A DNA stretch of 64,000 nt from a virus (taxonomy: Duplodnaviria > Heunggongvirae > Uroviricota > Caudoviricetes): positions 11,884-75,883 of IMG/VR virus record IMGVR_UViG_3300048672_001143; one strand, written 5' to 3'. Made by a program: the position numbers and the translations under genes. This document shows positions 2,977 through 60,600 of this stretch, piece by piece. The notes under the pieces are model-generated. The model saw nothing but the letters and a program-made list of their open reading frames with translations. It made no database searches and was not told the origin of the DNA. Position 1 is the first letter of the stretch, and each line of letters starts with the position of its first letter.

Positions 2977-5358
2977 TTAGTCGCCTAAAGTTGGTGTTTC
3001 TATTCCTGATTTTGCGCCTAATACCGGAGAAACGGGTTGCGGCGGTAAATTAGGGTGCGTTCCGGTATTTTGCACAACTGGAGCCGCCTGCGGGGTAACC
3101 GCTTGCATTACCGGAGCCGCATTACGGTCGATAAACCCGACGGATTTCAAAATTTCATCTGTAACTGGCGCCATTCCTGGGTTCTGTGCAGCCACTCCCG
3201 CTGCTTGCGCGGCTTCGTAGACGGCCGTAACGTTCGTCGTCGTGGTTTGGGCCTGAATGAGCGCTATTTTTGCGTCCATTTCCAGTAAAGATTTTTGGAT
3301 TTTTGCGTTTTCCATCTCTAATCGGGTATTTTCCAGCTGTAACTTACCTTGGGCAATTTCCATTTTGCCCTGTTCTATCTGCATTTTCATTTCCATTTGC
3401 TGCTGCGCCAACTGCTGAGCTGGGTCTGGTGGTGGGCTTTGCTCCATAGCATCGACTTTAGCAAAATCGAAGAACCGGGATCCATTATCGTAACCAGCAG
3501 CTCCGAATATCTCGTTAGCAATTTCTGCTCCTCGTATCGCTGCTCCTGCTTTAGGAACTAAACTGACTGTCGTCGCGACCGCGCTCTGTATTTTCTGCAT
3601 TCTTTGTGTCGGACTTACCGCGCCCATGCCGACGTTAACCGATACCGAGAATTTATAATTGAAATATTCTGGTAAGACTTTCAACAACTTAGCTTTCTTA
3701 GCCGCTACGGTTAGTGCCGTTGCATCCGTTTCATACATTGCCACGAGTTGTACTAGCTGTCTAAGAACCGGTTCGATCCAAGTTTCGGTAAAGGTTCTTA
3801 ACTCCATTTCCCGTACTTGGTTGCCCGCCTCGTTCATCAAATTCATGCCGGTTGCGGTTTCGTGCAACTTCCGGTTTGCATTAACAGTAGACCCGGCCGT
3901 TGACCCTGACAGGTCGTCCATAGCCAACGAGAGTCTGTCCATCTCCTGGTAGCTTGAAGCCGTTACGTCTTGTACTGGTAATGGCTCTACATGGCTGGAT
4001 AGAGCTCCGGGAGCACTAACACCTATTAACCCTCCTGGTACGTTTCGGCTCAAGGCCCTAACGTCGACTTGGTTCCCTTGGCGGTATAAATACCGGCGGT
4101 TTAATACTTGCCGAACGTTATCGTAACGTTGGTTATTTAATTCGTTGACCGCTTTCTGAAGTCCTGAAGTTAGCTCAACCGGGCTGCTTGGGAATGGCCG
4201 GTCCGTTTCGACTTCCATTTTCCCGAGTACATAGTCCCGTTGTCCTCCGGCCCAAGGTATTACCTGAGTAAGAGGTACCGGTTCTGACAATAAAACATTT
4301 ACACCGGCGGTATAGTAAAGCCAATCAATCCCGTCATATCGGACAATATTCCTGTGAATCCAGACTATGCGGAATTCGTCCACGACTTCCATCATGTTGG
4401 ATTTAGGATCCAGCCGGCGTGAACCTGACCGGGCACGACGTGTGGTATCTAAGTTATCCCGGTTACCCGCGGATAAAAGCTGTCCGGCTCCCAGTTCTTT
4501 CCAGGCGGGTTCCCCGTTTTTAGAATCCCTGCCCTTACGTAATTTTATCTCTGTTAAAACATCCCCTAAGAACATCGGCATCAGTTCTATCAGGTAGGGG
4601 GAAGAATTTGCTGGGTCCAGCCAGTCGGCTGCAGGGGATATTCGGATATTTTCTATCGGTACTACTCGGACCGTTGGTTCGTCTTTTATAATCCGCGTTT
4701 CATAAAGTTCTGTAACCGCACCGGTCTCAGGATCCACTTCTCTGCCGACTAAAATCTCGGCTTCCTTAAAGTTCCACGATTGATGTGACGCAATGGTGCC
4801 AAGTACTGCGGTCTCACCGATTCCGCCTAGGACCAATTGGTACCAAGGAATCGTGTGTGTTAACCGGTAATTTAATAAGTTTTTGATCAGGTCTGCTGCA
4901 TCTCGCTGCTCCGAGTTATCCGAGTCTTCGGCTTCAATAGCGACAACGTCGGAGCTGGTAAAGTAAGCAGAAGCCGCTGCGGCCTGGATTGCCCGTACCA
5001 AAGTACGTGTTTTTGGCCAAAAATAATTTGCCCGGTGCTTATTGGCGTCCGCCAAAATAGGTGAATCCGGCGCATGCTCTGACCGGTAATGCGCAAAGTT
5101 TCTAGCCCAGATAGCCCTTTGATTAACTTGCAACCACGATTCGCTTGACTCGTAAGCGTTTCTTGCCATTCGCACCCAATCCGTTGCTTCTCCAAAAGTT
5201 GATGAGTCACCCTGACTTATCTTCGGCCTTCCAGCCGCATAATTGGGGTTATTCCCTAGCCCATCAACTGAATTGACTTGTGGGGCGGATACCGCAGAGG
5301 AGGGTCTGTAATCTCCCCCTGCTAACGAAGGCTGTGGATCAAATGGCGCAAGCAGCAT
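2977..5358 (-). CDS. putative portal protein (793 aa; C-terminal Q/A/E-rich coiled-coil like barrel-forming portals)
   Basis: Size, position downstream of terminase and upstream of scaffold/capsid; C-terminal MEMKMQIEQGKMEIAQGKLQLENTRLEMENAKIQ coiled coil. Confidence 0.55.
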   Translation of the reverse strand: MLLAPFDPQPSLAGGDYRPSSAVSAPQVNSVDGLGNNPNYAAGRPKISQGDSSTFGEATDWVRMARNAYESSESWLQVNQRAIWARNFAHYRSEHAPDSPILADANKHRANYFWPKTRTLVRAIQAAAASAYFTSSDVVAIEAEDSDNSEQRDAADLIKNLLNYRLTHTIPWYQLVLGGIGETAVLGTIASHQSWNFKEAEILVGREVDPETGAVTELYETRIIKDEPTVRVVPIENIRISPAADWLDPANSSPYLIELMPMFLGDVLTEIKLRKGRDSKNGEPAWKELGAGQLLSAGNRDNLDTTRRARSGSRRLDPKSNMMEVVDEFRIVWIHRNIVRYDGIDWLYYTAGVNVLLSEPVPLTQVIPWAGGQRDYVLGKMEVETDRPFPSSPVELTSGLQKAVNELNNQRYDNVRQVLNRRYLYRQGNQVDVRALSRNVPGGLIGVSAPGALSSHVEPLPVQDVTASSYQEMDRLSLAMDDLSGSTAGSTVNANRKLHETATGMNLMNEAGNQVREMELRTFTETWIEPVLRQLVQLVAMYETDATALTVAAKKAKLLKVLPEYFNYKFSVSVNVGMGAVSPTQRMQKIQSAVATTVSLVPKAGAAIRGAEIANEIFGAAGYDNGSRFFDFAKVDAMEQSPPPDPAQQLAQQQMEMKMQIEQGKMEIAQGKLQLENTRLEMENAKIQKSLLEMDAKIALIQAQTTTTNVTAVYEAAQAAGVAAQNPGMAPVTDEILKSVGFIDRNAAPVMQAVTPQAAPVVQNTGTHPNLPPQPVSPVLGAKSGIETPTLGD

Positions 5359-9934: not shown

Positions 9935-10008
9935 TGGAGCGGGTACGGGGAATCGAACCCCGTCCCTCAGTTTGGAAGACTGGCGCTCTACCTTAGAGCT
10001 GTACCCGC
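9935..10008 (-). tRNA. tRNA-Gly (anticodon UCC), CCA encoded
   Basis: Manual cloverleaf: acceptor GCGGGTA/TACCCGC, D-arm GCTC-TAAGGTA-GAGC, anticodon loop CTTCCAA, T-arm CGGGG-TTCGATT-CCCCG, 3' CCA. Confidence 0.8.
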
Positions 10009-10016
10009 GAGGTGTT

Positions 10017-10093
10017 TGGTCGGAATAGCAGGATTCGAACCTACGGCCTCACCCTCCCAAGGGGCGCGCTCTACCAAACTGAGCTACATTCCG
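10017..10093 (-). tRNA. tRNA-Pro (anticodon UGG), CCA encoded
   Basis: Manual cloverleaf: acceptor CGGAATG/TATTCCG, D-arm GCTC-AGTTTGGTA-GAGC, anticodon arm CGCCC-CTTGGGA-GGGTG, T-arm GTAGG-TTCGAAT-CCTGC, discriminator A plus CCA. Confidence 0.8.
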
Positions 10094-10387
10094 ATTCTGA
10101 AAATAATAACCCCGAAAACTTTGCACCTGGAGAAATACACAGTATCGGGGGCAGCAAGGAATGCCGGATGAGTGGCGCTGCAACGCTAGTATACTTCGAG
10201 GTGGATGTTTTCAAAAATATTTTTTAAATTTTTTATTCGCGGTTATCTGACAGAACAGGGGAGGGGTGGGTTTTTGCGTGTCGCGTGTTGGTGTTAACGG
10301 TTTCATATCAAATTACGTTGCTTATCAAAAATACGTGTTTCTGAGGGACAAACGATATCTGAGTATTAGATAACTAATCGTTTGGGT

Positions 10388-10475
10388 ATCGGTTTATTAG
10401 ATCTGATAAATCCTGCATATCGGTTTATTAGATCTGCTAAATCCTGCATATCGGTTTATTAGATCTGCTAAATCC
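10388..10475. repeat. three tandem 31-bp direct repeats ATCGGTTTATTAGATCTG(A/C)TAAATCCTGCAT
   Basis: Read directly; copies 2 and 3 identical, copy 1 has one mismatch; followed by a T6 run. Confidence 0.85.
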
Positions 10476-10721
10476 TTTTTTCTAATAGCTTGTTGCAGGT
10501 GACACGCTATTTTCTAAAAACTTTTTGCGGATATCTTTTGGGGTTGCCAGGGGTAGTCTGTGCTTCCCGCTCCCCCGATTTCCGATGGTAGTACCCAGCC
10601 TACCCCACCCCCATAAAATCAAAAAGTTGTCCGCGTTAAGCGGACTCATTATCGCTTGTTTCTTATTAGCTTGTCGCGTAGCGACTCCTTACTAGATATT
10701 ATCAATAAGCTTTAATCTTCC

Positions 10722-11345
10722 TTATTCGAGCGGAGCGAGCCGATTTTTTTCAAGCATTAAGCTCAACACATGCCATTCCCGGCCTGTTACATATCGCTCT
10801 GTAAATGCCTGCTCGTACTGTTTTAAACGTTCAGCGTATACACTAGCAGCGGCCTTTTTTCTCCACTCTTCCCGGCTCAATCTATCGCTGCGCTTGTTTC
10901 TTTCTTTCGGCCTGCGTACTTTTCTAGCCTTCTTCCGTTCATCCGATAAGCGCCAAGCGATAAACTTTAATCGATGCCCCCTTTTATCCCCCTTTGCCCT
11001 AGTTTTGGCCAGCTGATAGTTATGTTTTGTTAGCTGTATACCGACTGGCGTATCAGGAACGATAAAAGCGCAATAAAAAGCTCCGTTAGTAGCTTGTTTC
11101 AAGTGGCCGTGAGGTAAAAAGCCGTTATCTTTCAATCGGTCGCGCATTTTATACAGCAACATGTATGAATGCGTTACTATAACCGCATAACGAGCTTTTT
11201 TATACTTTTCATTATCTAATTGGTTGCTAAACAGTAGTGTAGTCATCGAATTTTTAGATTTAAGGGAGTTTGCCGGATTGGAGTTTTTAAAACTCGGGCA
11301 GAGTTTTAGCCTTAATATTACCAGAAAACCGCAAATAGCTACCAT
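10722..11345 (-). CDS. hypothetical protein, first gene of the minus-strand unit (basic C-terminal tail)
   Basis: ORF track; no clear SD at either candidate start (11345 or internal M at 11246); function unknown. Confidence 0.3.
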   Translation of the reverse strand: MVAICGFLVILRLKLCPSFKNSNPANSLKSKNSMTTLLFSNQLDNEKYKKARYAVIVTHSYMLLYKMRDRLKDNGFLPHGHLKQATNGAFYCAFIVPDTPVGIQLTKHNYQLAKTRAKGDKRGHRLKFIAWRLSDERKKARKVRRPKERNKRSDRLSREEWRKKAAASVYAERLKQYEQAFTERYVTGREWHVLSLMLEKNRLAPLE

Positions 11346-11349
11346 TCAC

Positions 11350-12165
11350 AGGTTGAAATTATCCGTTGTCTGGTAGCGTAGTCTATTGCGCTTGGCCGCT
11401 TTTTGTCCGTCCATGTCCTACGTAATCACGTTGTTTTTGTAATTTCCCCCTACGCGTATTTTTTGCGGGTACGGTTTGACCGTGTAACCCGTAAAAAATA
11501 CGCGTTGTACCGTCCGTATTTTTTACGGGTTGCTCTTCGATTGAGTTGCACTTTCGCAAGTGTCCAGGGGTAGCCGTCTTTTTGTCCTGTCGTTGTCCTG
11601 TGGTGGTGGACACAAAAAACAGCGCTAAGTTTTTGTTTTAACTCTCTTATTTTTTCTGTCCTGTCCTGTCCTGTCAAAAATAAAGATATAATAATAACAC
11701 AAAAGTATAGTAAGTATTACGTCTCTGTATAAGGATTATAAAGAAGGTATTATAAAAAAGAGTAAAGAAAATAAAAACGACTTGAGGGGGGTACCCAGGA
11801 CAGCACCCAAAAAACGCCTTTTTTCCCTTATAAATCAATAGCTTACGAGCCGTCCACCACCCAAGGACAGGAGGACAGGACAAAAAAAAGTTGTTATAAA
11901 TCAAGCACTTAAATTACCACCCCATAGCCTTCAGCGTGGCCACCCCAGGACAGAAAGGGGCTAATTTTTGCGAGTTAACTGCAAAAAAGCGAAAAACCAC
12001 AAAATAATTGCAAATAACCCGCAAAAAATACGAGTTTAGATAAAAAAGCACTTGACACACGCGCAAATTGCGCGGATAATGGAACCCGTAGACAGAGAAA
12101 CACCCAAACCGATTTTTTAACCTGCCAATTTAGGCAATTTTAACTTTTTAAAGGATACCGCAATC
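11350..12165. promoter_or_regulatory. divergent control region / candidate replication origin: inverted repeats, GTCCTGTCC/GGACAGGAC iterons, AT-rich block
   Basis: Near-perfect inverted repeat CGCGTATTTTTTGCGGG...CCCGTAAAAAATACGCG at ~11455-11515. Multiple GTCCTGTCC copies in both orientations at ~11575-11960. >80% AT block at ~11680-11790. Separates the minus-strand late unit from the plus-strand early genes. Confidence 0.55.
12052..12080 (+). promoter_or_regulatory. sigma70-type promoter TTGACA-17-GATAAT with perfect palindrome CGCGCAAATTGCGCG in the spacer
   Basis: Read directly; 85 nt upstream of the first plus-strand gene. Confidence 0.6.
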
Positions 12166-12990
12166 ATGGCCACACTTTCAGCTCGTTATAACAACAATTC
12201 AGGCCGCGCTTTAGACAATGGCACTTTGCACGCGTTAGCACCATCAATATTCGCAGAGCAGGCCGCGCACGACCGCTCGGAAAAATACACATTTATACCC
12301 ACAATTCAAGTAGTCGAAGCTTTACGTAGTGAAGGCTTTTATCCAGTGGCCGCGGCTGAATCAAAAGCCCGCAAGGAAGAAAAGCACGGTTACACGAAAC
12401 ACGTTATACGCTTCCGACAACATGACGGGTTTACAACAGTAGGCGAAACAAAGCCCGAAATTGTCTTATTGAACAGCCATGACGGCACGTCTAGTTATCA
12501 GCTAAGCGCGGGCCTTTTTCGCCTTGTTTGCTCAAACGGTTTAATTGTTGCGGATGGGGCAGCACTAGAAACTATCAAATGTCGTCATAGTGGTAATGTG
12601 GTCGATAACGTAATAGAGGGCACATATAAAATTATCGAAGAAATGCCCAACGTTTTACAAAGCGTTGAAGAAATGAAAGCGTTGATAGTACCCGAAAAAA
12701 TACAGACCGCTTTCGCTAGGCACGCGGCTGGCTTGCGATGGGATGCCGAAACAATGCCGATTGATCCAGACCGCTTAAACCGGGCAAATCGCCGGGAAGA
12801 CTTAGCGAGTGATTTGTTTACCACAATGAACCGAGTGCAAGAAAACATTATACGCGGCGGTATCCGCGGCCGTAACGCGAACGGCGGACGGTTGACCACA
12901 CGGGCAGTCAATTCCGTAACCGAAAATGTAAGATTAAACAAAGCCGTTTGGGCAATGGCGGAGGAAATAAAAACCCTATTGGCCGCTTAA
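12166..12990 (+). CDS. DUF932-like phage/plasmid protein
   Basis: LLNSHDGTSSYQLSAGLFRLVCSNGL resembles the conserved NSHDGSS core of DUF932 (from memory); first gene after the promoter; leader TAAAGGATACCGCAATCATG. Confidence 0.45.
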   Translation: MATLSARYNNNSGRALDNGTLHALAPSIFAEQAAHDRSEKYTFIPTIQVVEALRSEGFYPVAAAESKARKEEKHGYTKHVIRFRQHDGFTTVGETKPEIVLLNSHDGTSSYQLSAGLFRLVCSNGLIVADGAALETIKCRHSGNVVDNVIEGTYKIIEEMPNVLQSVEEMKALIVPEKIQTAFARHAAGLRWDAETMPIDPDRLNRANRREDLASDLFTTMNRVQENIIRGGIRGRNANGGRLTTRAVNSVTENVRLNKAVWAMAEEIKTLLAA

Positions 12991-25402: not shown

Positions 25403-25592
25403 ATGCCTTCAGATCCCGTCGTTTGCAGTTACGAGCGTGAATAATTCGTGTCAGCCAATTCTGGCGAGCAGGAGTTAAAGCCTTTACCTTTTTATCTTCC
25501 AAAGTATCATCTATCCTGGCACACATATCCAGAATAATCTCTTCCAGTTCTTTGATTTCATCTACTAGATTTAAACGATCTTCAGAATTCAT
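25377..25592 (-). CDS. hypothetical protein
   Basis: ORF track; overlaps primase-helicase stop/start by 4 nt. Confidence 0.35.
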   Translation of the reverse strand: MNSEDRLNLVDEIKELEEIILDMCARIDDTLEDKKVKALTPARQNWLTRIIHARNCKRRDLKALKKRLAGG

Positions 25593-28177
25593 ATCAAGCC
25601 CTCCCTGGCATCGTACTCGCCCAATCGGTTTAGCACCGTTTGTTTAGCCTCTTCAAGGGACATAACGGTATCCGCAGAACGTTTGGCCCACAGGCAATGC
25701 CGGTCACCTTGTATACGAACGCGGTCTAGCTTGACGTATCCCAAAGAGAGCAAAGCACTGGTTAGGCGATAAGTATTTTTAGCTTCGAGAGTTCTATTTG
25801 ACTGCGCCACGATGCGATCCCATAGCGGCGTGAAAGAAACTACGTCACCCATAAATAACGGGTTTTTATCGTCCTCTATTATCTCTGAGACAACTTCTGC
25901 CAGTTCGTCTTTGCAAACCTTAATGATATTCTTTTTAGCGTCCGTAGTAGGAGCATGGCCATTTGGGTTGAAATCCGGATGCTTAGGGATATCCAACACC
26001 CAACGCAGCATGTCGCCGCACTGATCCGAAACAATAGCCTCGTGCAGGATGTCAAAGTAATCCGGCTCTTCTAAGTGAATTCGTTTCAATGGGAAAGAAG
26101 ATTTTAAGACAAAATACCGGCGGTCTTTATCGCCTAGGGGTATGGCGTCTTCAAAGTTAGTTGTGAGAATATAGTTTGCCGTATTAGCGACAGTTCGGGT
26201 TTCTTTGCCTTTTTCATGACATTCAATCACATCATTCGTCAGAACATCTTTGATAGAGTTAGTGATCTCATGCCGATTGTGGCCGTGCCACTTAATTTCC
26301 TCGATGAAACCCAGGCAATGCCCCTCTACCCATCCGCTGAAAGAAGTTTTCGCGCTGTTTGCGATCGTAGAGCCTTTTATGGCTTTAGTGTTACTCGGAC
26401 CCAGTGCACGCATCAGCAGCTTAAAGAATAAGCTTTTTCCGTCCCCTTCATCACCGAGTAAGAGTAAAGCCCAGCGGATCTTGATTGGTGGTCGACCAAC
26501 ACAGGAAGCTAAAAAATTACAAAGCAGCTGCGCTTCTCGATTCCAGCCACCACAGACTAACTCGATGTGGCGACGCAAAATATTAGCTGCCTTTTCTCCG
26601 GCAGGAGTTTCAATAGCTTCAGGTATAGGGCAACGGAATCTATCGGTGTACGTATTAACGCACGTAACACCACGATCGACAAAAAACATATCGCAAGCGG
26701 GCATATATTTCTTGGCCATGACTTTTTGTACAAAATAGCTATCACGTACAAAATCAGCGGAAGATGTCGGGCTGCCTTCTCCCCGTGGTAAACGAGAATC
26801 GAAATACCCGTTAAACCCGCGAGTTGTAAGTTTTACGCCAGTAATAACGTTGAAAAATATTTCTTCTGATGAAACCCAAACCCAATTCCTAGCCCAGTCC
26901 GGGGCATTACCGTTGACGAATTCTGGAGCATCTGGAACTTCAGTATGGTCCCGAGTATCTTGGCGAACCCGCATTGCTCGTCTGGCATTGGCTACAGATA
27001 AAACATGCCCTTCGCGCAATGCGGCGTAGCGTGTTCTGAGGCCTTCCAAAAAATCTTGTTCTAACGATACGTTCTCGTTAGCTAATCGCCATAAACGGGG
27101 GGCGACGTCCCGTATTAATACTAAATGGTCCGTACAGCTTTCCAAGAGAGCGCCTGCTTGCTCAATAGCCTCGGCATCACGAGTTTTTTTTACTTCGACT
27201 TGTAAAGCTTTGTGCTCTTTGATCAGTGTTCTAAAGGTGACTTCCGGTCCAGAGGTTCGTTTACCAAAACTTGCCCAAGACTTTGATACATCCTCGAATC
27301 CTTGGTATTCCCGGACGTTTTGGGACCATTTATCGAACATCAGTAAGGCTTCATAGCTGCCTTGAAACTGGTGGTGTAGAATCATGCCTATATCACGCCA
27401 CTGCGCGTAGGACTGATTTCCTGGTTCGGGTAGGTACTGTTCAGCGTTATCGAGGGTAATATCCGGTAGCGGCGCGTATTTAGTATCCTCTTCAGATAAT
27501 GGGATATAATCGCCTTCTATCGTTTCTTGCGCAGCAGGTGGGGGTAGAACCGCCTGTTTGACTAGTACGGGGAATTTTTCTGTGGGAAAAATTTCGGACA
27601 ACTGCTCAGCAGTGTACGGTTCTGCACCAGATTCGTGGATGAGCTTTACTAAAAAAGGAGCTCCTTTACAATGATAAAAACCCGGCACGCGTAAAACGCG
27701 AGCCAGATCTTTTGCGTTAGGGTCAGATCCAAAATGATCTACTAAAACTTGCTGTAAACGTTGATGCTCTTCGTTTGAAATACCAGATACCAAGATAATC
27801 TTGTGAAACTTTCCGGGACTGGTTTCGGTAATTATGTGAGGCTCTACGGGCAATTGTATGCCCAAACCCTCGTCATCTTCAACCCAAATAGCACGAGCCC
27901 GAACGATATTTTTGAGTGTAGCGCCTTGCATATCGGTTTCGTTAATCGTCACGAAAACCCCGGCACGTTTTTTATTTTTCTCCCAGAGCGCCGCTGAAAG
28001 CTGATCGAAAGTCCCGTGTCTAGTCATAGCTAAATCACGGTCTTTTCTGGTCTTTATGTCATCAAATGTTCTGAAAGAAAAGCCATCAGAGGTACCATCT
28101 AACAGGGACCGGTATTCTGCGGAAGGGTCTAATATCTGTAAAAATCTAGCTGCTTGTAAAAAATCAGGTTGAGCCAT
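25589..28177 (-). CDS. primase-polymerase (prim-pol) fused to SF3 (D5/P4-alpha-like) helicase
   Basis: N-terminal VFVTINETD ... ARAIWVEDDEG prim-pol motifs; C-terminal Walker A GDEGDGKSLF and Walker B-like RYFVL, typical of the SF3 helicase layout. Confidence 0.7.
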   Translation of the reverse strand: MAQPDFLQAARFLQILDPSAEYRSLLDGTSDGFSFRTFDDIKTRKDRDLAMTRHGTFDQLSAALWEKNKKRAGVFVTINETDMQGATLKNIVRARAIWVEDDEGLGIQLPVEPHIITETSPGKFHKIILVSGISNEEHQRLQQVLVDHFGSDPNAKDLARVLRVPGFYHCKGAPFLVKLIHESGAEPYTAEQLSEIFPTEKFPVLVKQAVLPPPAAQETIEGDYIPLSEEDTKYAPLPDITLDNAEQYLPEPGNQSYAQWRDIGMILHHQFQGSYEALLMFDKWSQNVREYQGFEDVSKSWASFGKRTSGPEVTFRTLIKEHKALQVEVKKTRDAEAIEQAGALLESCTDHLVLIRDVAPRLWRLANENVSLEQDFLEGLRTRYAALREGHVLSVANARRAMRVRQDTRDHTEVPDAPEFVNGNAPDWARNWVWVSSEEIFFNVITGVKLTTRGFNGYFDSRLPRGEGSPTSSADFVRDSYFVQKVMAKKYMPACDMFFVDRGVTCVNTYTDRFRCPIPEAIETPAGEKAANILRRHIELVCGGWNREAQLLCNFLASCVGRPPIKIRWALLLLGDEGDGKSLFFKLLMRALGPSNTKAIKGSTIANSAKTSFSGWVEGHCLGFIEEIKWHGHNRHEITNSIKDVLTNDVIECHEKGKETRTVANTANYILTTNFEDAIPLGDKDRRYFVLKSSFPLKRIHLEEPDYFDILHEAIVSDQCGDMLRWVLDIPKHPDFNPNGHAPTTDAKKNIIKVCKDELAEVVSEIIEDDKNPLFMGDVVSFTPLWDRIVAQSNRTLEAKNTYRLTSALLSLGYVKLDRVRIQGDRHCLWAKRSADTVMSLEEAKQTVLNRLGEYDAREGLI

Positions 28178-28259
28178 ATAGACAAGTTCTTCGTATTGTG
28201 TGACAAAAAACCCCGCGGATAGCGAGGTGGCCTCCCCATTACGGGGTGTAAAGTACTGC

Positions 28260-28553
28260 CTAAATCGTAGTTATATCGGTATAAAACGGACATTTGCGGC
28301 AAGCTTCGCAGAGATCGCCCCTCAATAAAGGTTCCGGTGCTTCTGGATATTGCTGCTTTATTTCGGCCATAGCTACTTCCAAGGCCCCTGCTTTATCGGC
28401 AGATATACCTCGACGACCAGCTACCCATTGGCGATACATAGCCTCAGAGGTTCCAGCTGTTTTACTAAGCAGCTGCTTCAGAGCAGGAGTCGCTTCTTTC
28501 AGCCAACCTTGCAGCTTAGTAACTGGAGTGTATTTATTTTTCACAGATTGCAT
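28260..28553 (-). CDS. small regulatory-like protein (C-terminal CEACRKC)
   Basis: Track ORF 28260..28640; its GTG start overlaps the -35 of the divergent promoter, so the internal ATG (MQSVKNKY) at 28553 is preferred. Confidence 0.35.
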   Translation of the reverse strand: MQSVKNKYTPVTKLQGWLKEATPALKQLLSKTAGTSEAMYRQWVAGRRGISADKAGALEVAMAEIKQQYPEAPEPLLRGDLCEACRKCPFYTDITTI

Positions 28554-28633
28554 ATCGAAAAGTATCAAGTTAAAGTAGTGGTGCAGCAAATGATAACACG
28601 TCTGTAAAACTGCTGCAAGTAGAAATTTAGCAC

Positions 28634-28662
28634 TTGACACAATAAAAACAAACCTGTAGAAT
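28634..28662 (+). promoter_or_regulatory. sigma70-type promoter TTGACA-17-TAGAAT
   Basis: Read directly; preceded by the conserved GCAC. Confidence 0.55.
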
Positions 28663-49460: not shown

Positions 49461-49538
49461 GCCACTTTAGCTTAGTCGGTTAAAGCAGGCCGCTCATAAC
49501 GGCAAGTGTGCTGGGTTCGAATCCCCCAAGTGGCACCA
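49461..49538 (+). tRNA. tRNA-Met/Ile2-like (anticodon CAU), CCA encoded; imperfect T-stem
   Basis: Acceptor GCCACTT/AAGTGGC perfect; D-arm GCTT-AGTCGGTTA-AAGC; anticodon arm GGCCG-CTCATAA-CGGCA; T-arm CTGGG-TTCGAAT-CCCCC has only 3 clean pairs. Confidence 0.55.
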
Positions 49539-50547: not shown

Positions 50548-52302
50548 ATGAAGAATTTTTTTATAACATCGATGCTATTTTCATTGGCATTTTCTGCAAA
50601 TGCAACTACCTACGGGCCGGTTGAAAACTTTGATACAACCAATACTACCGGGCATGACGCTCACGGCTTCGAAATCGAAGCTTGCGACGTACTGCCGTCT
50701 GATATTTCAAGTATTTTTGGTGATGTAAGCCGGTTTGGAACTGATCAGGTTGAGCGTTACGATGCGCCAACCGTTACCGAATACACTGACGCAGTTTGTC
50801 ACGGTACGCGTGTCAGCTACCGGGCAAAATTTGACGGCGTTAACTGGTCTGCAACCACGCCAAGCGGCGAACTACCTTATGCGCCTACGGATTCATGCTG
50901 GAAGTACGGCGATCCTAACTACAACACAACTACATATCCGTGTGATCATTTTGGTGTAAGCTTTAACAAAGCGCCGACTAAGCTTAAATACGCGTGGTTG
51001 ATCGAGTCAACACCGGGTAACTTAATTCAAACTGATGTTTACGTACCAAGCCCTATTTTCGACATTGTAACGCCTGCAGTCGTTGTACCTCCTGCCGCAC
51101 CTGGGGATGCGCCGATAATCATTAATCCGCCGGTTATCAATGTTCAGTTGGAAGCGGCTGAATTGCAGGCCGGTCAAGACTTTGGTACTCCATACTGGGT
51201 TAAAGTTAAAGCAACTTGCTTGAATGATAATGTTGCTGTTGAGCATCTTGTAAAAGACGGCGCAGTAATGGCTAACATGGAAACTGAGACAGAATGGCAG
51301 ATATTCCAGATCGACGCTGGCAATCCGGCCTCTGCGTTTCTTGATATGACGGCTACAAAAATCAGTAATTGTGCTGCCGGTGAAGCTTACACGATTGACG
51401 TATTTGAATATGCTGGCCCAGCCAAAGCGGGCGGAGAAATTGACTTGCAAGGTGCAAGCGATACGCCCGTTCTTGAACCTCCTACTTTAGGCAAATGGTT
51501 AGGCGCAAATAACGTTGGCGTTAACTACGTCGGTGATGTTCCAGTCGCTGCAATTGGCGGCCCTGCCGTTGTTCCTTCACCTACTCCAGCGCCTACTCCG
51601 TTGCCAACACCGGCTCCAGTCGCCTGCTCTGGTACTGATGTTGCAATTACAAGCATATCGGGAGCGTACCGGAATAGTAATATAGCCTTATTTGATGGCA
51701 CGATAATCCAGGCGCCTTACATAGGTACGGTGGACGGACTTGTGGCTATCCCGCAATTCGGACCTAATTATATACTTAACGGCGGGTTTGCAGTCGGTAA
51801 TACCGTAACTTTTACGGGTACTTTCGGCTCTGCAGTAGACGCTAATGGCGTGCCTGTGTTCTGTATCCCAGATACGGGATCTGATTTTACAGTTAATCCG
51901 GTAGCTACTCCAACCCCCGTGCCTACGCCAGTGCCTACGCCAGTGCCTACGCCAGTACCTACGCCAGTGCCTACGCCAGTACCTACGCCAGTACCTACGC
52001 CAGTACCTACGCCAGTACCTACGCCAGTACCTACGCCAGTACCTACACCAGTGCCTACGCCAGTGCCTACGCCAGTGCCTACGCCAGCCCCGGTATCCTG
52101 TGTAATAGCCGGTGCAAAAGTTGAAGGTAAAGGTGCTATTACTGCCGTTTCTGGAAACGTTGTAACGGTAAACGGAAAAACGATCACTGTTTTAGACTGC
52201 GCTGCAGTCGAATGGAATCGTGCAAACCACGCCTTCAAAGTCGGCGATAAGTTTGAATGGAAGGGCTTCGCAAATTCAGCAGTAAAAGTAACGCTTAACT
52301 AA
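50548..52302 (+). CDS. secreted protein with Pro/Thr linkers and a (PTPV)n tandem repeat
   Basis: Signal peptide [19 protein letters not shown]; [13 protein letters not shown] linker and about 20 PTPV repeats. Confidence 0.55.
51915..52088 (+). repeat. ~14 copies of a 12-nt tandem repeat CCTACGCCAGT(G/A) encoding (PTPV)n, approximate bounds
   Basis: Read directly; in-frame within CDS 50548..52302. Confidence 0.8.
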
Positions 52303-54482: not shown

Positions 54483-54698
54483 ATGCCCAACTCAAACAAC
54501 GACGCTTTTTTCGAAGAGCTACGCGAAAGAAACCGGTTTAAAAACGATACCTACTCAAACGAAGACCTGCAAAAGTTAATCGATGGTATGTATGAGCGCT
54601 ACGCTTCTCTTGGGGCTAACCAAGACAAGCACGCGTTGTTTAGAAAGATTTTAGAATTAATCGATGTGCAGATAGCGAGAGCAAAATCCGCTACCTAA
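54483..54698 (+). CDS. hypothetical protein
   Basis: ORF track; same CTGGAGAAATAAAA-ATG leader; stop overlaps the convergent giant ORF's stop. Confidence 0.35.
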   Translation: MPNSNNDAFFEELRERNRFKNDTYSNEDLQKLIDGMYERYASLGANQDKHALFRKILELIDVQIARAKSAT

Positions 54699-57600
54699 TC
54701 CCCATTTTCTTCCCGCAATCTGTTTTGTTCATAGAGGTACGCCAGTCTTGGATTTACGGCGTACCCTCTAATTCCTCTGGCCTGCTCGTTCTTAGCTGTT
54801 CTTACTGCCGATTTATGAATGCTTTCGTAAGTAATTGGCCACGATGGGTGATCTTTCTGCCACTTGCTCAACTCTTCCTGTGGAATCGGTTCGCCTTTTG
54901 TTACCGCTTTCTGGATCTTATTTACCAGTTTAGCGCGAGCATCGGATATCGCAGCTTCTGCGGCTTTATTATACCCGCGTTCAGCGTACAGCACTTCCAT
55001 ATTGGAACTACCCAACCCGATAGCCTGGAACAGTACTTCCATTGCAGAAGCGTCTTTCAATTGCTCCCCGTTCATACTTTCGTACCCAGACTGAGCTAAG
55101 CGGATAGCTTTCATTCCGTCGCCAATCGCTTTGGGCGTAGCGCTTTCTACCCCACGCCATATTTCCCCATCGCCTAGCATTTTTGCGCCATCAGCGATCT
55201 TCTTAACCATGCCACCGAATGGTCCTGCGACTTGTGAGAGATACTCAGTCGCAGCATCTTTCCCTTCCAGGTCTTTCAAAGGCTCTTGGAAGAAGATATT
55301 GCTCAAATTCATACGGGAGGCTAAGTTGACCGGGGTCAACGCATTGCCCAACCCTTTAATAACCGCCGTAGCGAAGGTTTCACCCCCGAGGGAAGTCAAT
55401 CCTACACGAACTTCCTTTTCTACGTCCCACGGCTCATCATCGTCGGATACGGCGTTGCCAAGAGCGTTTAGCACCATGGTTATCGCGCCCATCAAAGGCA
55501 TTCCAAATAAACCGGCAGCCGCACCCTGCATAACAAACAGCGCTGATAGCGATCTAGCTGCTTCTTTCGCTTCTGCTTTTCTGGCGTCGGCCAAAGCTAT
55601 TTCTTCCGGGGTATTTCTCGGCATTTTTTTCCAATACCCAAGCGTATCGACTGCGGTACGACCCCACAAATAAAGCATGGCCTGTGGATATTTTTTATAC
55701 TGCATAACCACGCCAGCTACAGGCCCGCGGAATATGCGAGCCGCGTTTTCAGTCGAGTAATCGCCGTGCGCATCATTGTTTAGCTTACGGGCATACTCCA
55801 AGGCTTCGTAGTGATTTTCTGGATCCCCGTTCAACGCTAAATCATAAGCCGCCAAGAGGGTAATTTCTCGGTTCATCCGCTCACCGTGGTGAAACATCCA
55901 ACCCATCTTTTTGTTGAATTCTTGCAGGCGACCGCCGTAATCTTCCCCTTCACGGCCGATGCCCAAAACATCGAAGAAGTTGGTCCTGGAAACATCACCC
56001 TCTTCTTTAAAATCGCGTAAAGCAGCTAAGCGCCTGGAGATGCGGAGCATTTCTCTAGGATCGCCGTTGTGCGCCCGGAGATAAGCTAATTTTTCTTCCA
56101 TTACCACTGAGATAGATACGTTCCCGTCTTCATCCCGGTAAATGTAATTTCCATTGGCGTCTTTCTTGTTGAAGTTGATAACCGCTTTAAGGAATTCATT
56201 TCTGGTATTTCCAAAAGCTTTTCGGGTTGCATTAACCCCGTATTTACCTACCGCAATGGGCATAGCCACAACGGGTGTTTGAAATAAGTTGACTAAACCA
56301 CTTGATAAACCGAAACCCATAGTCATAACGAAGTCGAATTGGCGAATAGCCGCAGCCACCTGATCCATGCCTGTACTAGAAGTGTTCACCATCGCATTGT
56401 AGGTCTTATTCAACTCTTCGATGGTGTATGCGGCTTTGTGGCTGTTCTCAGTGTTTATGTGGCTAGCAGCTTCTAAAGCTTCCTTATTGCGTACCGCTAC
56501 TCTTTCCAAAGATTCTTCCGGGGAACCTACGGATACCGTATTTTCCCACAACGTTTGCACTTTTCTAAAGCGTTTTACCTGCTCTGGAATTCCAGTAGCT
56601 ATAATATCTGCTATGGCTGCTTCCACTCGCTGTGGGTCTTGGTATTGAGCCCAAAAGCTGGCTATTTTTTCAGCGGTTTTAAGCGCGTCGGAAGCTTCTG
56701 CGCGTTCCCGTGCAGTAGTCGCTTCCGATAGGTTTTTCTGCGCTATGAATAAAGCTTTTGGAACTTTGTTAGCGATATCTAGATGGCTGAATTTATTGCG
56801 TAGCTTAATCGCTTCATCGTACAGATTCTGTTCTTCCGCCGGCGCGTTATCCCTGAGCTCCTCTAAGGCACCTTCTTGTTTCAACTCGTCCCAATTCGCC
56901 CCCAACATTTCAGCCGCTTGCATTTCAGTACGCTTTGCTTCACGAGCAGAAGTTTTAGTCGCTATGTCCAGTGCCAGCTTAGCATCTCGGAGAGATTCGC
57001 CCATGTTACGACCTTCCACCATATTGGCTAATTGGGAAGCTCCGTGGTGGATAGTGTTGGCAAAAGCCCGCATAGCATCTTCATCGAAGCCTTTTGTGCC
57101 TTTGCGGTGCATAGCGTTGTGCCGGACCGAAATATCTGGCAACGTTGCCAAATACATTTGGTGGATCTCATCTTGCAACTCTTTAGAAACCTCGATTGGG
57201 ATATCCGCCGCATCGATTTTCTCGTGAATATTTTTCAAGAAGTTGTCCGATACAGCATCCCCAATCTGCGCGTTTTGCATTTCGCTTAATGAAGTTCCCT
57301 GATCTCTTACCGTTCCACCTTCAGCTTCGAAGTTCTTTACCGCCCGTTTTCTAGCGGCTAAAGACTCATAAGTCATGAACCAGTTTTCGCCTTGGGCATC
57401 TTTTCCGTAAAACCAATGATCCCCGTAACGCTTCAACGGTGCGTAGTACCAGGATAGTGACTGGGATTCAAATTTTATCCGGAGTTGCGCGATCAATCCT
57501 GCCGCAGTTTGAGCATCGATCATCGACTCTTCGATCCGGTGTTCGAGTGCTTCCAGGCGGGCGTTGAATATCTCCTGGTGGAGTTCGTATGTGCCTGAAT

Positions 57601-60600
57601 AAATTTTAGCGGCTTCTGGATTGGTAGATACTAAGGTATCGTAAGCCGGTTTCAAGTTAGCATAAGACTGCCGGCGTAAAATGTTAGAATCTTTCCAGCC
57701 GTTTTTAGCGCGTTTTTCAGTTTGTTTTTGGTCAATCTCGTGCAGTTTGGTCAAGAACTGCTGGGCCTCTTCTTGCGTAGCGAAAGTCGCTGAATTCTTA
57801 TCTGATAAGATAGCACCGGCCTGATCAGCGGCTTCTGACAGCGCAGTTCGGCTTTCCCCGTTGAATTCTGTCATCGAGTACGCTTTAAATTGCCCGCGCA
57901 GTGTTCTCTCTACACCAAGCCAATCTTTGGAGACGTTAATGTCCCGAAGCGTCGACTGTTGCATTATACGACCAGTTTCTTTACGAGCTGGAATCGGTAA
58001 ACCCTTCCACTTGATCGTGGTAATCTGATTCGCTTTATGTAAGTACGGGTCCACCATCGCACGGCGACGCTGCATACCTTCTTCGTAAGTTTTTAGCCCC
58101 GGCAGATAGGATTTAGCGGACTCGATAATCTGGCGAACGGACAAGAACGCTAATTTTTCTTTAGAAAGCGTTTCGAGGAGATTGTCTTTTTTATCCTGTA
58201 ACTCACTTGCGGCTACTCTTAACCCTTCCGGCAGATATTCGGCTACTGCTTCACGCGTGCTGCGGGACGGCCTGCTGAACATCGGCATGCCTTCTGAAAG
58301 AATTTTCTCTTTCATTTCTGGCGTGATGATCAAAGCGGGTTGGTCCTTCAATCGCCCGCCGGCTTTCATTCGTTTTTGGTCTTCTGGGGTTAGGGATTTC
58401 CCTTGCAATGAATCTCGGTAAGGAATACCAATAACAACAGGAACCGATTCAATTTTCCCGCCCCTTTTACGCGCGATTTCCATAGCCGCTTGGGTAATCA
58501 GCGCTGGTTTTCCCTGCGCATTTAAACCGTTTCCGTCGCCGTACATGGCTTGCGTCCAAGCCCCGCCTATTTTAAGATCAAGGCCCGATAATTCTCTAGC
58601 TACGGGAGAAACTTCATCTTCCGGCTCAAAACCTACAGACCCCTGTGATTTAGTGCCTTCCATTCCGATTATCTTGCCCGCTAGGTCTTTCCCAACGTAC
58701 TCTTCAAGTTGCTCCGGGGACTGATCAAATCGGGTATCTACACTATCACCACCCATATCGAAAATGTTTATATCGAATTTTCCGTTGCGCTTTACGTACC
58801 TAATCTTACTAACTTGAGCGCTAAGATCATACCGATCTGCTTGTTGATCACCCGTTGTCCAGGCCACAGAATTGCTATCGCTGTCTATCGCTTGGCTGAT
58901 CGCTTTTTTCATCAGTAAAGAAATATAAGCGTTTGTTGCTTTAGTATTGGAATCGGTAACGAATGGCGCCGCTGGTATTCCTAGTTCTGGCATCCTTTCT
59001 AATTTTCGTATTTCATCTAGAATATCTTGCCTTTTAGACTGAAGACTGACGAATTCTTCGTCAAATTCCTCATCCATACCCGCCTTTAAAGCTAATTCAT
59101 GCATTCGCCCACGTAACTTCACATTTTGATCTTTTAATTCCAGAAGATGCCGTTCTTCGGCATCCGTTAAGGGCCTGTTAAATCCCAGTTTTCTGCCCGC
59201 TTGACTACGTTGGCTTTGTACTTCTTCCAAGAATAAAACTTTATTGCCGTTCGCGTCGATTCGGGTATTGTGTCGAATCCAGCCAATTTGCTTACCTTCT
59301 CCTGTATCACCAAAATGCGTGTGATCGTTCCGGTTGTAAGGCTCCGTAGTTGGTATGGTAACTACAAGTTCGCGGTAATCTACTCCGCCGGGAAGTGTTA
59401 ACTGTGCGTTATCGTGTTTAGGTTGTTGCTTCCGCTGCTGTTCTAAAATATTAACTGTATCCGATAAGTTCTGGTATCTGTCTTTTTCGCTTCTAGATAA
59501 ATCATCAAACTTTATTCTGCCGTATTTAGAATGCTGCTCTGCTCTAAAGTGGTTCATTTCTTCTAACGTAGAACGCAATTTATTTTCGAGCTGCGTATCG
59601 GTACCTAACACCTTATCCTCAACTTTCACGCCGTTAGCGTCCAGAAAATCGCTAACCTGTGCCCGAGACACTTTTCCGGAAAGAGAATCCAACCAATCCG
59701 TAATCCCTGACCAATAAATTTCGTCTTTCTTAACGTCAAATTTAGGCGCGTTGGCCACTAACCAGACTTTCACTTGCTGCGCGTTGCCAAAAACTTTCTC
59801 CGGTGCTTTTTCAACCGCTTTGCTTAGAGCCGAATAAAATCTTGGCGCAGGTTCAGAAGGTCGGCTAAACATTGGCGCTTCAATATCTGATTCGCTAAAC
59901 GGACTCGATTGCACATTCCTTCCGGTCCGTAATTGCGCCTCTGTTTCTGTGCGTTTTCCAGACCATACTGGAACCCCACCCCAGCGATTAGTGTTCGGCG
60001 CTGGGATGATAGAAACGACAGAGTAAACCTGCCCGCCGTTCTGCCTATCCGCTTGCTTACTGACAACCAAAGCCTGCTGCAGCCTAGAAGACCGAAATAT
60101 TAAATGTCCTTTGTCTCGGAATATCTGATCAAAGCCTTTGGCAATCGAACTGACGTGCCGGGCGTAATTTTCAGCGACTTCACTGGTATATCCCGGCACT
60201 GTTCTGCGATCTTTTTCACGAATCGCGTTATCGTGGATGTGCGTAATACCAAAACCTCTATGCTCGGCTGTGGCCACGCCTACCCGTAATTTGATCGGTA
60301 GTTGCTCTACCCCTTTAGAAACCGCTTCACGAGGCGTCATCGCAATAACGCCGTTCATATTACCTTCAAACTGCGGAGTTTCTGGCACAATGAAATCTTC
60401 TACCGATTTCCGAATCCCGTGTAACCGGCGAGATTGTTGCGCTTCTGAATTAAATACCCTTAGCGAAGTAGAATCTCGGTTAGCCGCGGAAGCTAGACTA
60501 GCGCGAAGTAAATCGTGGATATCTTTTTCGCCCATTTTACCGGTGATAAACCCCCGGCCAATACCGTGGGTTACCAAAAAGGATTTGATTTGAGAAATAA

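Follow-up and report, generated by a model that had tools for sequence, protein, structure and literature searches.

Opposed TGTCC iterons around an AT-rich core next to an early promoter: a candidate lytic replication origin in a tailed phage

The replication origins of staphylococcal pathogenicity islands (SaPIs) contain 6 to 12 penta- or hexanucleotide iterons and a central AT-rich region, with at least two opposed iterons on each side. The iterons are read by the winged-helix C-terminal domain of a self-loading superfamily 3 (SF3) helicase, Rep or PriRep, of which one hexamer per side is thought to be loaded, and the origin sits immediately downstream of rep (PMC9371898). Origins of this type are further characterized by specific binding of Rep to the iterons and by melting of the AT-rich region without ATP. 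The alpha protein of phage P4 and ORF904 of pRN1 also combine primase, SF3 helicase, and C-terminal winged helix in one polypeptide (1KA8; PMC2777425). Here, we describe a gene-free region around 11.3 to 12.2 kb of a 64-kb stretch of DNA (positions 11,884 to 75,883 of IMG/VR virus record IMGVR_UViG_3300048672_001143), referred to below as the window, which covers most of a tailed-phage genome (source contig of 87.8 kb, with ~24 kb outside the window). An earlier note had taken this region for a candidate origin or switch. Judging from its sequence, we consider with moderate confidence that the region is a lytic replication origin together with an early promoter, and the best-supported description appears to be that of an origin of the SaPI/P4 type, made of iterons and an AT-rich center and adjoining an early promoter, a known kind of element in a previously undescribed lineage. 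Loci used for comparison carry L-numbers, and the five phages compared are the window, L010, L002, L005, and L006.

The pentamer TGTCC, or its complement GGACA, occurs 14 times in the 0.82 kb of the region (between 11404 and 11952), where about one copy would be expected. This amounts to 17 copies per kb versus 1.4 per kb window-wide (Poisson P = 3e-12), and we found no second cluster in the 64-kb window. The 7-mer TGTCCTG is concentrated in the same place, with 8 of its 11 window copies in the 370 nucleotides (nt) between 11583 and 11952 (3.9 would be expected for the window, and none of 100 shuffles reached 11). The repeats in both orientations mentioned in the earlier note are indeed present, with only three copies of the exact 9-mer GTCCTGTCC against the higher counts of these two shorter units. 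The orientation of the pentamers follows a rule, plus strand to the left of the AT-rich core and minus strand to its right, that holds for 13 of the 14 copies (8/9 on the left and 5/5 on the right; two-sided P = 0.002). The left side comprises an outlying plus-strand pair with copies 10 bp apart (11404-11418; identical in L010), an outer plus-strand set (11561-11612) with TGTCC at 11561, 11583, and 11594 (the last two 11 bp apart) plus a conserved inverted GGACA at 11608, which is aligned in all relatives, and an inner plus-strand set (11656-11675) that a tandem repeat finder detected as four units of CTGTC, with TGTCC at 11657, 11662, and 11667. The inner set is identical in L010, and the relatives have two TGTCC here. 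The right arm (11798-11952, minus strand) has GGACA at 11798, 11865, 11873, 11878, and 11948.

Between the two arms lies the AT-rich core (11676-11784; 81% AT), which we propose as the DNA-unwinding element. It contains the 100 nt with the highest AT content of the 64-kb window (11678-11777, 81%), confirming the stretch of more than 80% AT that had been noted before, and is the least stable duplex of the window at the 60-, 100-, and 150-nt scales (~4.9 standard deviations from the mean at 100 nt). The relatives keep the composition of the core (77 to 81% AT) but much less of its sequence. At its right edge, all five phages have a run of 6 to 12 G at the same place (11786-11791 in the window, plus strand). 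A conserved promoter within the core was also considered and dropped, since no consistent pair of -35 and -10 hexamers was found across the relatives.

The arms are interspersed with matches to the consensus of the integration host factor (IHF). Two of them are exact matches to WATCAANNNNTTR on the plus strand: AATCAATAGCTTA (11833-11845), found at the aligned position in all four relatives, and AATCAAGCACTTA (11899-11911), kept in L010 and loosely in the others. The window has nine exact matches to WATCAANNNNTTR, two of them in these 0.82 kb (Poisson P = 0.006), all of them being consensus matches only. A further IHF-like site on the minus strand of the left arm (11626-11638; reverse complement AAACAAAAACTTA) has one mismatch to WATCAANNNNTTR, is a perfect match in L005, and belongs to a block conserved in the alignment. 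As for DnaA boxes, no match to TTATCCACA with up to one mismatch was found in any of the five phages, and the only match to TTWTNCACA was in L006. This absence is as expected for an initiator independent of the host.

A nucleotide search against phage and plasmid records returned nothing for the region (the only matches were weak and inside the neighboring DUF932 gene), and IMG/VR yielded no match to either flanking protein or to a DNA pattern specific to the region. In a metagenome collection, the same pattern recovered one true relative, L010 (from the same contig as L014), which is 91% identical across the region; the matches of L011 in this collection and of L019 in a genome collection were discarded as chance. 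L012 and L013 have an identical copy of the 174-amino-acid (aa) gene that flanks the region and the same gene order as L010. The more distant L002, L005, and L006 code for DUF932 proteins 64 to 70% identical to that of the window, and their neighboring proteins span 25 to 70% identity. All four relatives (L010, L002, L005, and L006), which are uncultured phages, share the order of elements: A-boxes (a second repeated motif, treated below), TGTCC on the plus strand, the inverted IHF-like site, two or three TGTCC, and the AT-rich core, followed to the right by the G-run, GGACA, the IHF consensus site, more copies of GGACA, an A-box, and the promoter. Each relative has 11 to 13 copies of TGTCC, and the orientation rule holds with few exceptions. 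Between the window and L010, the right iteron and IHF arm (11785-11960) is 94.9% identical, the flanking coding DNA ~87%, the AT-rich core 83%, and the A-box cluster 74%; given these differences, selection seems to act on the iterons, the IHF sites, and the composition of the core rather than on its sequence.

Outside this group, the corresponding position in L009, a phage further removed, is occupied by a different short repeat, GGAGAC/GTCTCC, whose copies form opposed sets on either side of a short stretch rich in AT. Neither TGTCC nor A-box arrays were found upstream of DUF932 in a Methylomonas plasmid (L001), a plasmid-like contig (L008), a conjugative element (L017), or an AT-rich phage (L015). 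Hence, the element is specific to this lineage and not tied to DUF932.

The trans-acting initiator that we propose is a fused primase and SF3 helicase of 862 aa (25589-28177, minus strand), with Pfam matches to RepB_primase, PriCT_2, and DUF5906 (SF3). By sequence, it resembles the helicase region of NrS-1. A structural model of its last 336 aa (predicted local distance difference test, pLDDT, of 81) ends in a unit of helix-strand-helix-helix-strand-strand, and the C-terminal end is predicted from this model to be a winged-helix-like domain. With the same model, Foldseek matched the C-terminal region of NrS-1, PriRep of SaPI5 (7OLA), and PriRep1 with double-stranded DNA (7PDS), over ~280 to 370 columns and with E values of 1e-9 to 1e-14; 6K9C was also among the matches in this range. 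No match to 1KA8 was detected at the sequence level. An 805-aa protein near the L002 region was considered as a counterpart and is not the primase-helicase. The gene of the window and a 126-aa open reading frame (ORF) upstream of it form a minus-strand segment (25589-28640) within an otherwise plus-strand block; this segment faces a GCACTTGACA promoter at 28630, making up a small divergent unit.

Considering that the layout fits the SaPI origins, that the phage codes for the corresponding class of helicase, and that DnaA boxes are missing, we propose a mechanism for a lytic origin, all steps of which we infer. The host RNA polymerase would fire the early promoter (12052-12080), leading to expression of the early and replication genes, including the primase-helicase. 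This SF3 helicase of the D5/SaPI-Rep type would then read the TGTCC sets (11561-11675 on the plus strand and 11798-11952 on the minus strand) through its predicted winged-helix-like domain, and one helicase ring would be loaded on each side of the core. IHF, or the HU-like protein of the phage, would bend the arms at 11626, 11833, and 11899. The core would melt, the primase domain would prime, and replication would proceed in both directions. If the early promoter and the weak leftward promoter described below both fire, the negative supercoiling between them would favor the opening of the core.

The likeness to the SaPIs and other phage-inducible chromosomal islands (PICIs) extends to several features. 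The number of short iterons (14) is above the 6 to 12 of the SaPIs, the AT-rich center has at least two opposed iterons on each side, DnaA boxes are absent, and the helicase is fused to a primase and has a C-terminal part, with a predicted winged-helix-like end, whose model matches SaPI5 PriRep and PriRep1. The array here is larger (~400 to 550 bp) and is interleaved with IHF-consensus sites, a G-run, and A-boxes, and it is located in a large phage (87.8-kb contig) that probably infects a Gram-negative host, versus a satellite of 15 kb.

Several observations weigh against an origin of this kind at this place. The SaPI origin adjoins rep, while the primase-helicase gene lies 13.4 kb from the proposed origin (no iteron array was found in the flanks of that gene); IHF sites and A-boxes are foreign to the SaPI type of origin; and the spacing of the iterons is irregular (5, 8, 10, 11, and 22 bp). 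The GC-skew minimum is found near 11 to 13 kb, the same place where the genes change strand; because of this coincidence, the skew is not independent evidence for an origin, and we dropped it as confounded with gene strand. Lastly, a second conserved gene-free region only 1 kb to the left (10094-10721) is the main alternative location for the origin.

Other known origins share part of this design. The P4 alpha protein recognizes an AT-rich origin through short repeats that occur in either orientation, and its domains are those predicted here, with primase, SF3 helicase, and C-terminal winged helix in one protein. However, the P4 primase is DnaG-like and that of the window is of the RepB/prim-pol type, and P4 needs a second cluster of repeats (crr) kilobases away from the origin, and the window has no second TGTCC cluster. 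The iteron theta origins of pSC101, R6K gamma, and P1 oriR are also compact, gene-free, AT-rich elements with repeats, IHF sites, and a small divergent neighbor gene, and the IHF sites beside the AT-rich region have counterparts here in the consensus matches at 11833 and 11899. In contrast, their direct repeats of ~17 to 22 bp are read by adjacent proteins of the Rep_3/RepA type, while the core of the repeat is 5 to 7 nt long and opposed here and the 174-aa neighbor matches no Rep family; in addition, those origins usually rely on DnaA boxes. The origin of the lactococcal phage c2 is located in an AT-rich, repeat-bearing gap between divergent early and late units, like the candidate origin described here, and includes the early promoters, but it works through an early transcript and is not known to have opposed pentamer arrays.

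The A-boxes are the other repeated motif of the region. The near-perfect inverted repeat reported in the earlier note is present, with 19-nt arms ACGCGTATTTTTTGCGGGT (11452-11470) and ACCCGTAAAAAATACGCGT (11487-11505) that are 95% complementary and 16 nt apart, and so are the further copies, at 11515-11531 and 12017-12035. The box CCCGYAAAAAATACG has exactly four copies, all in the gap and nowhere else in the window; allowing two mismatches, the window has seven matches (0.74 expected, and none of 100 shuffles reached seven). The first three copies form a cluster (11452-11531; core CGYAAAAAATACG) with alternating orientation (minus, plus, and minus). The fourth, on the plus strand, lies 17 to 35 nt 5' of the -35 hexamer of the early promoter, and its core is identical in L010. 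There is also a degenerate A-box on the minus strand (GCTAATTTTTGCGAGT; 11960-11975), in a block (ATTTTTTGCGACTTG) conserved in L002, L005, and L006. The core is present in all relatives, with variable number, spacing, and orientation (L005 has three copies in a 47-bp tandem repeat). In L010, the complementarity of the arms is lost, with changes that are not compensatory; for this reason, the arms look like separate copies of a binding box and not like a hairpin, and we rejected the hairpin or cruciform and the attenuator readings of the triplet. From their sequence, the CGCAAAAAATACG boxes at both edges of the region are candidate binding sites, separate from the iterons, for some other factor, which probably tunes the two promoters or the origin.

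The early promoter (TTGACA-17-GATAAT; 12052-12080, plus strand, within the motif GCACTTGACA) agrees with the consensus at 11 of 12 positions (-35 at 12052-12057 and -10 at 12075-12080), and in all relatives the -35 hexamer is invariant and the -10 hexamer is kept. Its 17-nt spacer does contain the palindrome CGCGCAAATTGCGCG (12060-12074; 7-nt arms around one central base), as had been described. Its proposed role as an operator-like site did not survive the comparison and was rejected, since 5 of the 15 positions differ in L010, in spite of the 91% overall identity, and there is no counterpart in L002, L005, and L006, so that the palindrome belongs to this genome only. A speculative leftward promoter for the 174-aa gene (TAGACT-16-GATAAT; 11358-11385, minus strand) agrees with the consensus at 9 of 12 positions, and L010 keeps its -10 hexamer but not its -35. 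A lambda-like immunity switch would have conserved palindromic operators overlapping the promoters and an adjacent repressor gene. Here, neither the palindrome nor the inverted repeat is kept, the two candidate divergent promoters are ~670 nt apart, and no repressor-like gene was recognized beside them, with no helix-turn-helix or repressor family found in the flanking genes. Hence, of the origin or switch suggested in the earlier note, the comparison sustains the origin as the best reading (by the opposed iterons, the least stable DNA, the IHF sites, the conservation, and the encoded initiator-type helicase) and not the switch.

Two side observations concern these promoters. Exact copies of GCACTTGACA with the embedded -35 hexamer are found in the window at 12048, 28630, and 48246, always on the plus strand and ahead of gene blocks; going by the motif, they look like a phage-specific class of strong host-type promoters. 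In the conjugative element L017, the DUF932 promoter (4985-5010) has a 7+7 palindrome straight after TTGACA (ACGCCCC-AAT-GGGGCGT), different in sequence from that of the window, and in the close phage relatives the palindrome arms after TTGACA are only ~4 nt long. The coincidence between L017 and the window may be due to chance or to a recurring position for operators.

The same elements could be read as purely transcriptional control, with the TGTCC arrays and the A-boxes acting as operators or enhancers of a phage regulator, possibly the 174-aa protein, that would loop the DNA with IHF, and without any start of replication. The region does lie between a strong conserved promoter and a divergent single gene with its own terminator, the A-boxes are just 5' of both candidate promoters, the 174-aa protein is very basic, and the direct TGTCC copies 10 to 12 bp apart resemble the tandem sites of winged-helix activators. 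Yet the iterons are 100 to 490 nt away from the early promoter, with none over its -35 or -10 hexamers, the spacer palindrome is not conserved, and the control of a promoter does not need opposed arrays centered on the least stable 100 nt. Regarding the regulator, the 174-aa protein is only 25 to 30% identical in L002 and L006, while the TGTCC and A-box cores are unchanged, which makes it an unlikely reader of these motifs, and it has no recognizable DNA-binding fold (its model, with a pLDDT of 54, is unusable). We therefore regard control of transcription alone as unlikely.

A smaller chance still is given to the region being a genome end or packaging site (direct terminal repeat, cos, or pac), whose repeats would serve the terminase or the processing of concatemers, as in the early/late junction of T7- or N4-like phages. 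Short repeat arrays and IHF sites are known beside cos sites and terminal repeats, the region has the end of the structural and packaging genes on one side and the first early gene on the other, and the start of the L005 contig falls within its A-box tandem repeat. For a genome with fixed ends, such as those with direct terminal repeats or cos, the clade of the terminase and the ends of the contigs are informative, and neither agrees: the nearest large terminases (~45% identity) belong to Bcep22-like phages and their relatives, for which terminal redundancy, circular permutation, or headful packaging has been described (PMC9144972; PMC10269572), and no contig ends in the iterons or the AT-rich core, with three independent Logan contigs breaking near 10.7 kb instead. 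Moreover, the phage has a small terminase of the P22 gp3 type, and the region is internal to the 93.5-kb L002 contig and to the L012-L014 contigs. The arms also bring to mind an attP site, the partition centromere of a plasmid-prophage, or a telomere-resolution site, all of which bring together IHF sites and short repeats in both orientations; repeats on two arms with IHF between them recall P1 parS, with its boxes, and lambda attP, with its arm-type sites. This seems highly improbable here: among the larger window proteins scanned, none showed an integrase, ParA/ParB, or protelomerase domain (with the ~24 kb of the contig beyond the window out of view), the sequence of the central core is not conserved among the relatives, and a perfect palindrome at the center is missing. 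A lytic origin next to the early promoter thus remains the reading that we favor.

The second gene-free region (10094-10721), between tRNA-Pro and the 174-aa gene, contains a 31-nt tandem repeat with 2.9 copies (10387-10476, 98% matches), the intrinsic terminator of the 174-aa gene (10626-10645), and two blocks conserved even in L002, and gave no Rfam match. Three short-read contigs from two studies (L003:1, L004:1, equivalent to L002:3851, and L006:1) start within ~12 nt of the stop codon of a 198/199-aa gene at its edge, which suggests either a hypervariable segment that breaks the assemblies or a physical end of the DNA. This region might act in packaging as a pac site, contain a late promoter, or code for a noncoding RNA. 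Since the tRNA and terminase genes follow it directly and its edge is where the three contigs break, it is more likely a packaging or late-transcription element than an origin, and a better candidate for the packaging site than the iteron region.

The earlier note had described a control region of ~800 bp. The gap is real and slightly larger, ~0.9 kb (11247-12165, between the 174-aa gene on the minus strand and the DUF932 gene on the plus strand in the ORF list), because the left gene starts at 11246, a start backed by the 174-aa homologs and by independent gene calls on L012-L014. The equivalent region is also free of called genes in L002, L003, L004, L006, L012, and L013, and Rfam gave no credible match, only sub-threshold microRNA-like noise on the inverted repeat. 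That the gap separates a late minus-strand unit from an early plus-strand unit is roughly right, except that the adjoining minus-strand gene (10722-11246) is a small stand-alone unit ending in the terminator at 10626-10645 and not the start of the late operon. Searches with its strongly basic product in Pfam, PHROG, NCBIfam, and the PDB found no match, and given also the poor structural model we dropped it as initiator or repressor; in L005, the gene falls outside the contig.

On the other side, the DUF932 gene (12166-12990, plus strand; PF06067, E = 2e-44) is the first early gene. In its 5' leader (12121-12136), there is an inverted repeat, TGCC-AATTTA-GGCA, that in L010 is a perfect palindrome (GCCAAATTTGGC) and might serve as a binding site or fold into an RNA hairpin. 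Members of this family adjoin gene-free regions of ~1 kb in the Methylomonas plasmid (L001) and in the element L017, which bears a type IV secretion system, and in most jumbo phages that carry DUF932 the gene is near the left end of the deposited record. DUF932 appears to be an early-entry gene common to phages and conjugative elements.

The rest of the window shows the gene content of a tailed phage in two blocks. The minus strand from position 1 to ~11.2 kb codes for an SU10-type portal, an HU-like protein, the large terminase, a P22-gp3-type small terminase, and two tRNAs, and the plus strand from 12.2 to 54.4 kb contains the early and replication genes (DUF932, GP88, DUF2800, an Enc34-type single-stranded DNA-binding protein, a family-A polymerase, ThyX, and SNF2). 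From the candidate origin (11.3 to 12.2 kb) the genes point away in both directions, and they converge at ~54.5 kb, a distance of ~43 kb or roughly half of the 87.8-kb contig; if this contig is complete and circular, such a layout is the pattern expected for genes co-oriented with bidirectional replication. Beyond the point of convergence, a 3099-aa ORF (54695-63994, minus strand), annotated as a polyvalent protein with weak matches to LPD39 and GGDEF-like domains, may correspond to the giant DarB-like protein found in the virions of Bcep22-like phages. Within another ORF (584 aa, 50548-52302) there is a 12-nt tandem repeat with 13.8 copies (CCTACGCCAGTA; 51922-52087, 96% matches), which would encode a four-residue protein repeat. 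The phage codes for tRNA-Gly(TCC), tRNA-Pro(TGG), and tRNA-Met(CAT), at 9935-10093 and 49461-49538; tRNA-Gly is apparently missing from L012, a relative ~87% identical over the neighboring genes.

Regarding the affiliation of the phage, the nearest large terminases, with ~45% identity, are those of Bcep22-like and related Ralstonia and Pseudomonas phages, and the portal and the primase-helicase reach ~30% identity to anything cultured. A DUF932 protein identical to that of the window is recorded on an 87.8-kb contig of the Joint Genome Institute (JGI), and the closest named homologs of this protein come from Methylococcales. Judged by these homologs, the lineage is possibly a new phage group with methanotrophs as hosts.

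A more ambitious reading, which we consider doubtful, is that the region is a composite hub for entry and start, in which the primase-helicase, IHF or the HU-like protein, and an A-box factor would share one 0.7-kb scaffold and couple the first early transcription (the DUF932 operon) to the initiation of replication, specific to an uncultured lineage of ~88- to 95-kb contigs. If this were true, SaPI-type origins with opposed pentamers would be a general design of large lytic phages and not a peculiarity of satellites, and the early operon headed by DUF932 would be to these phages what the leading region, where the DUF932 family is typical, is to plasmids.

General concepts of replication would not be changed by the origin proposed here. 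Its interest is that very few lytic phages have a mapped origin, and no member of this lineage does; compared with cultured phages, the hallmark proteins of the lineage reach 30 to 45% identity at best. Should it be confirmed, the region would provide a minimal origin (~11560-11960) and a candidate cognate initiator for a new phage group, and the design of opposed pentamers around an AT-rich core would also be found in large phages of Gram-negative bacteria, away from the helicase gene. The combination of opposed short repeats around a stability minimum with IHF sites would then be a signature for the prediction of origins in metagenomic sequences.

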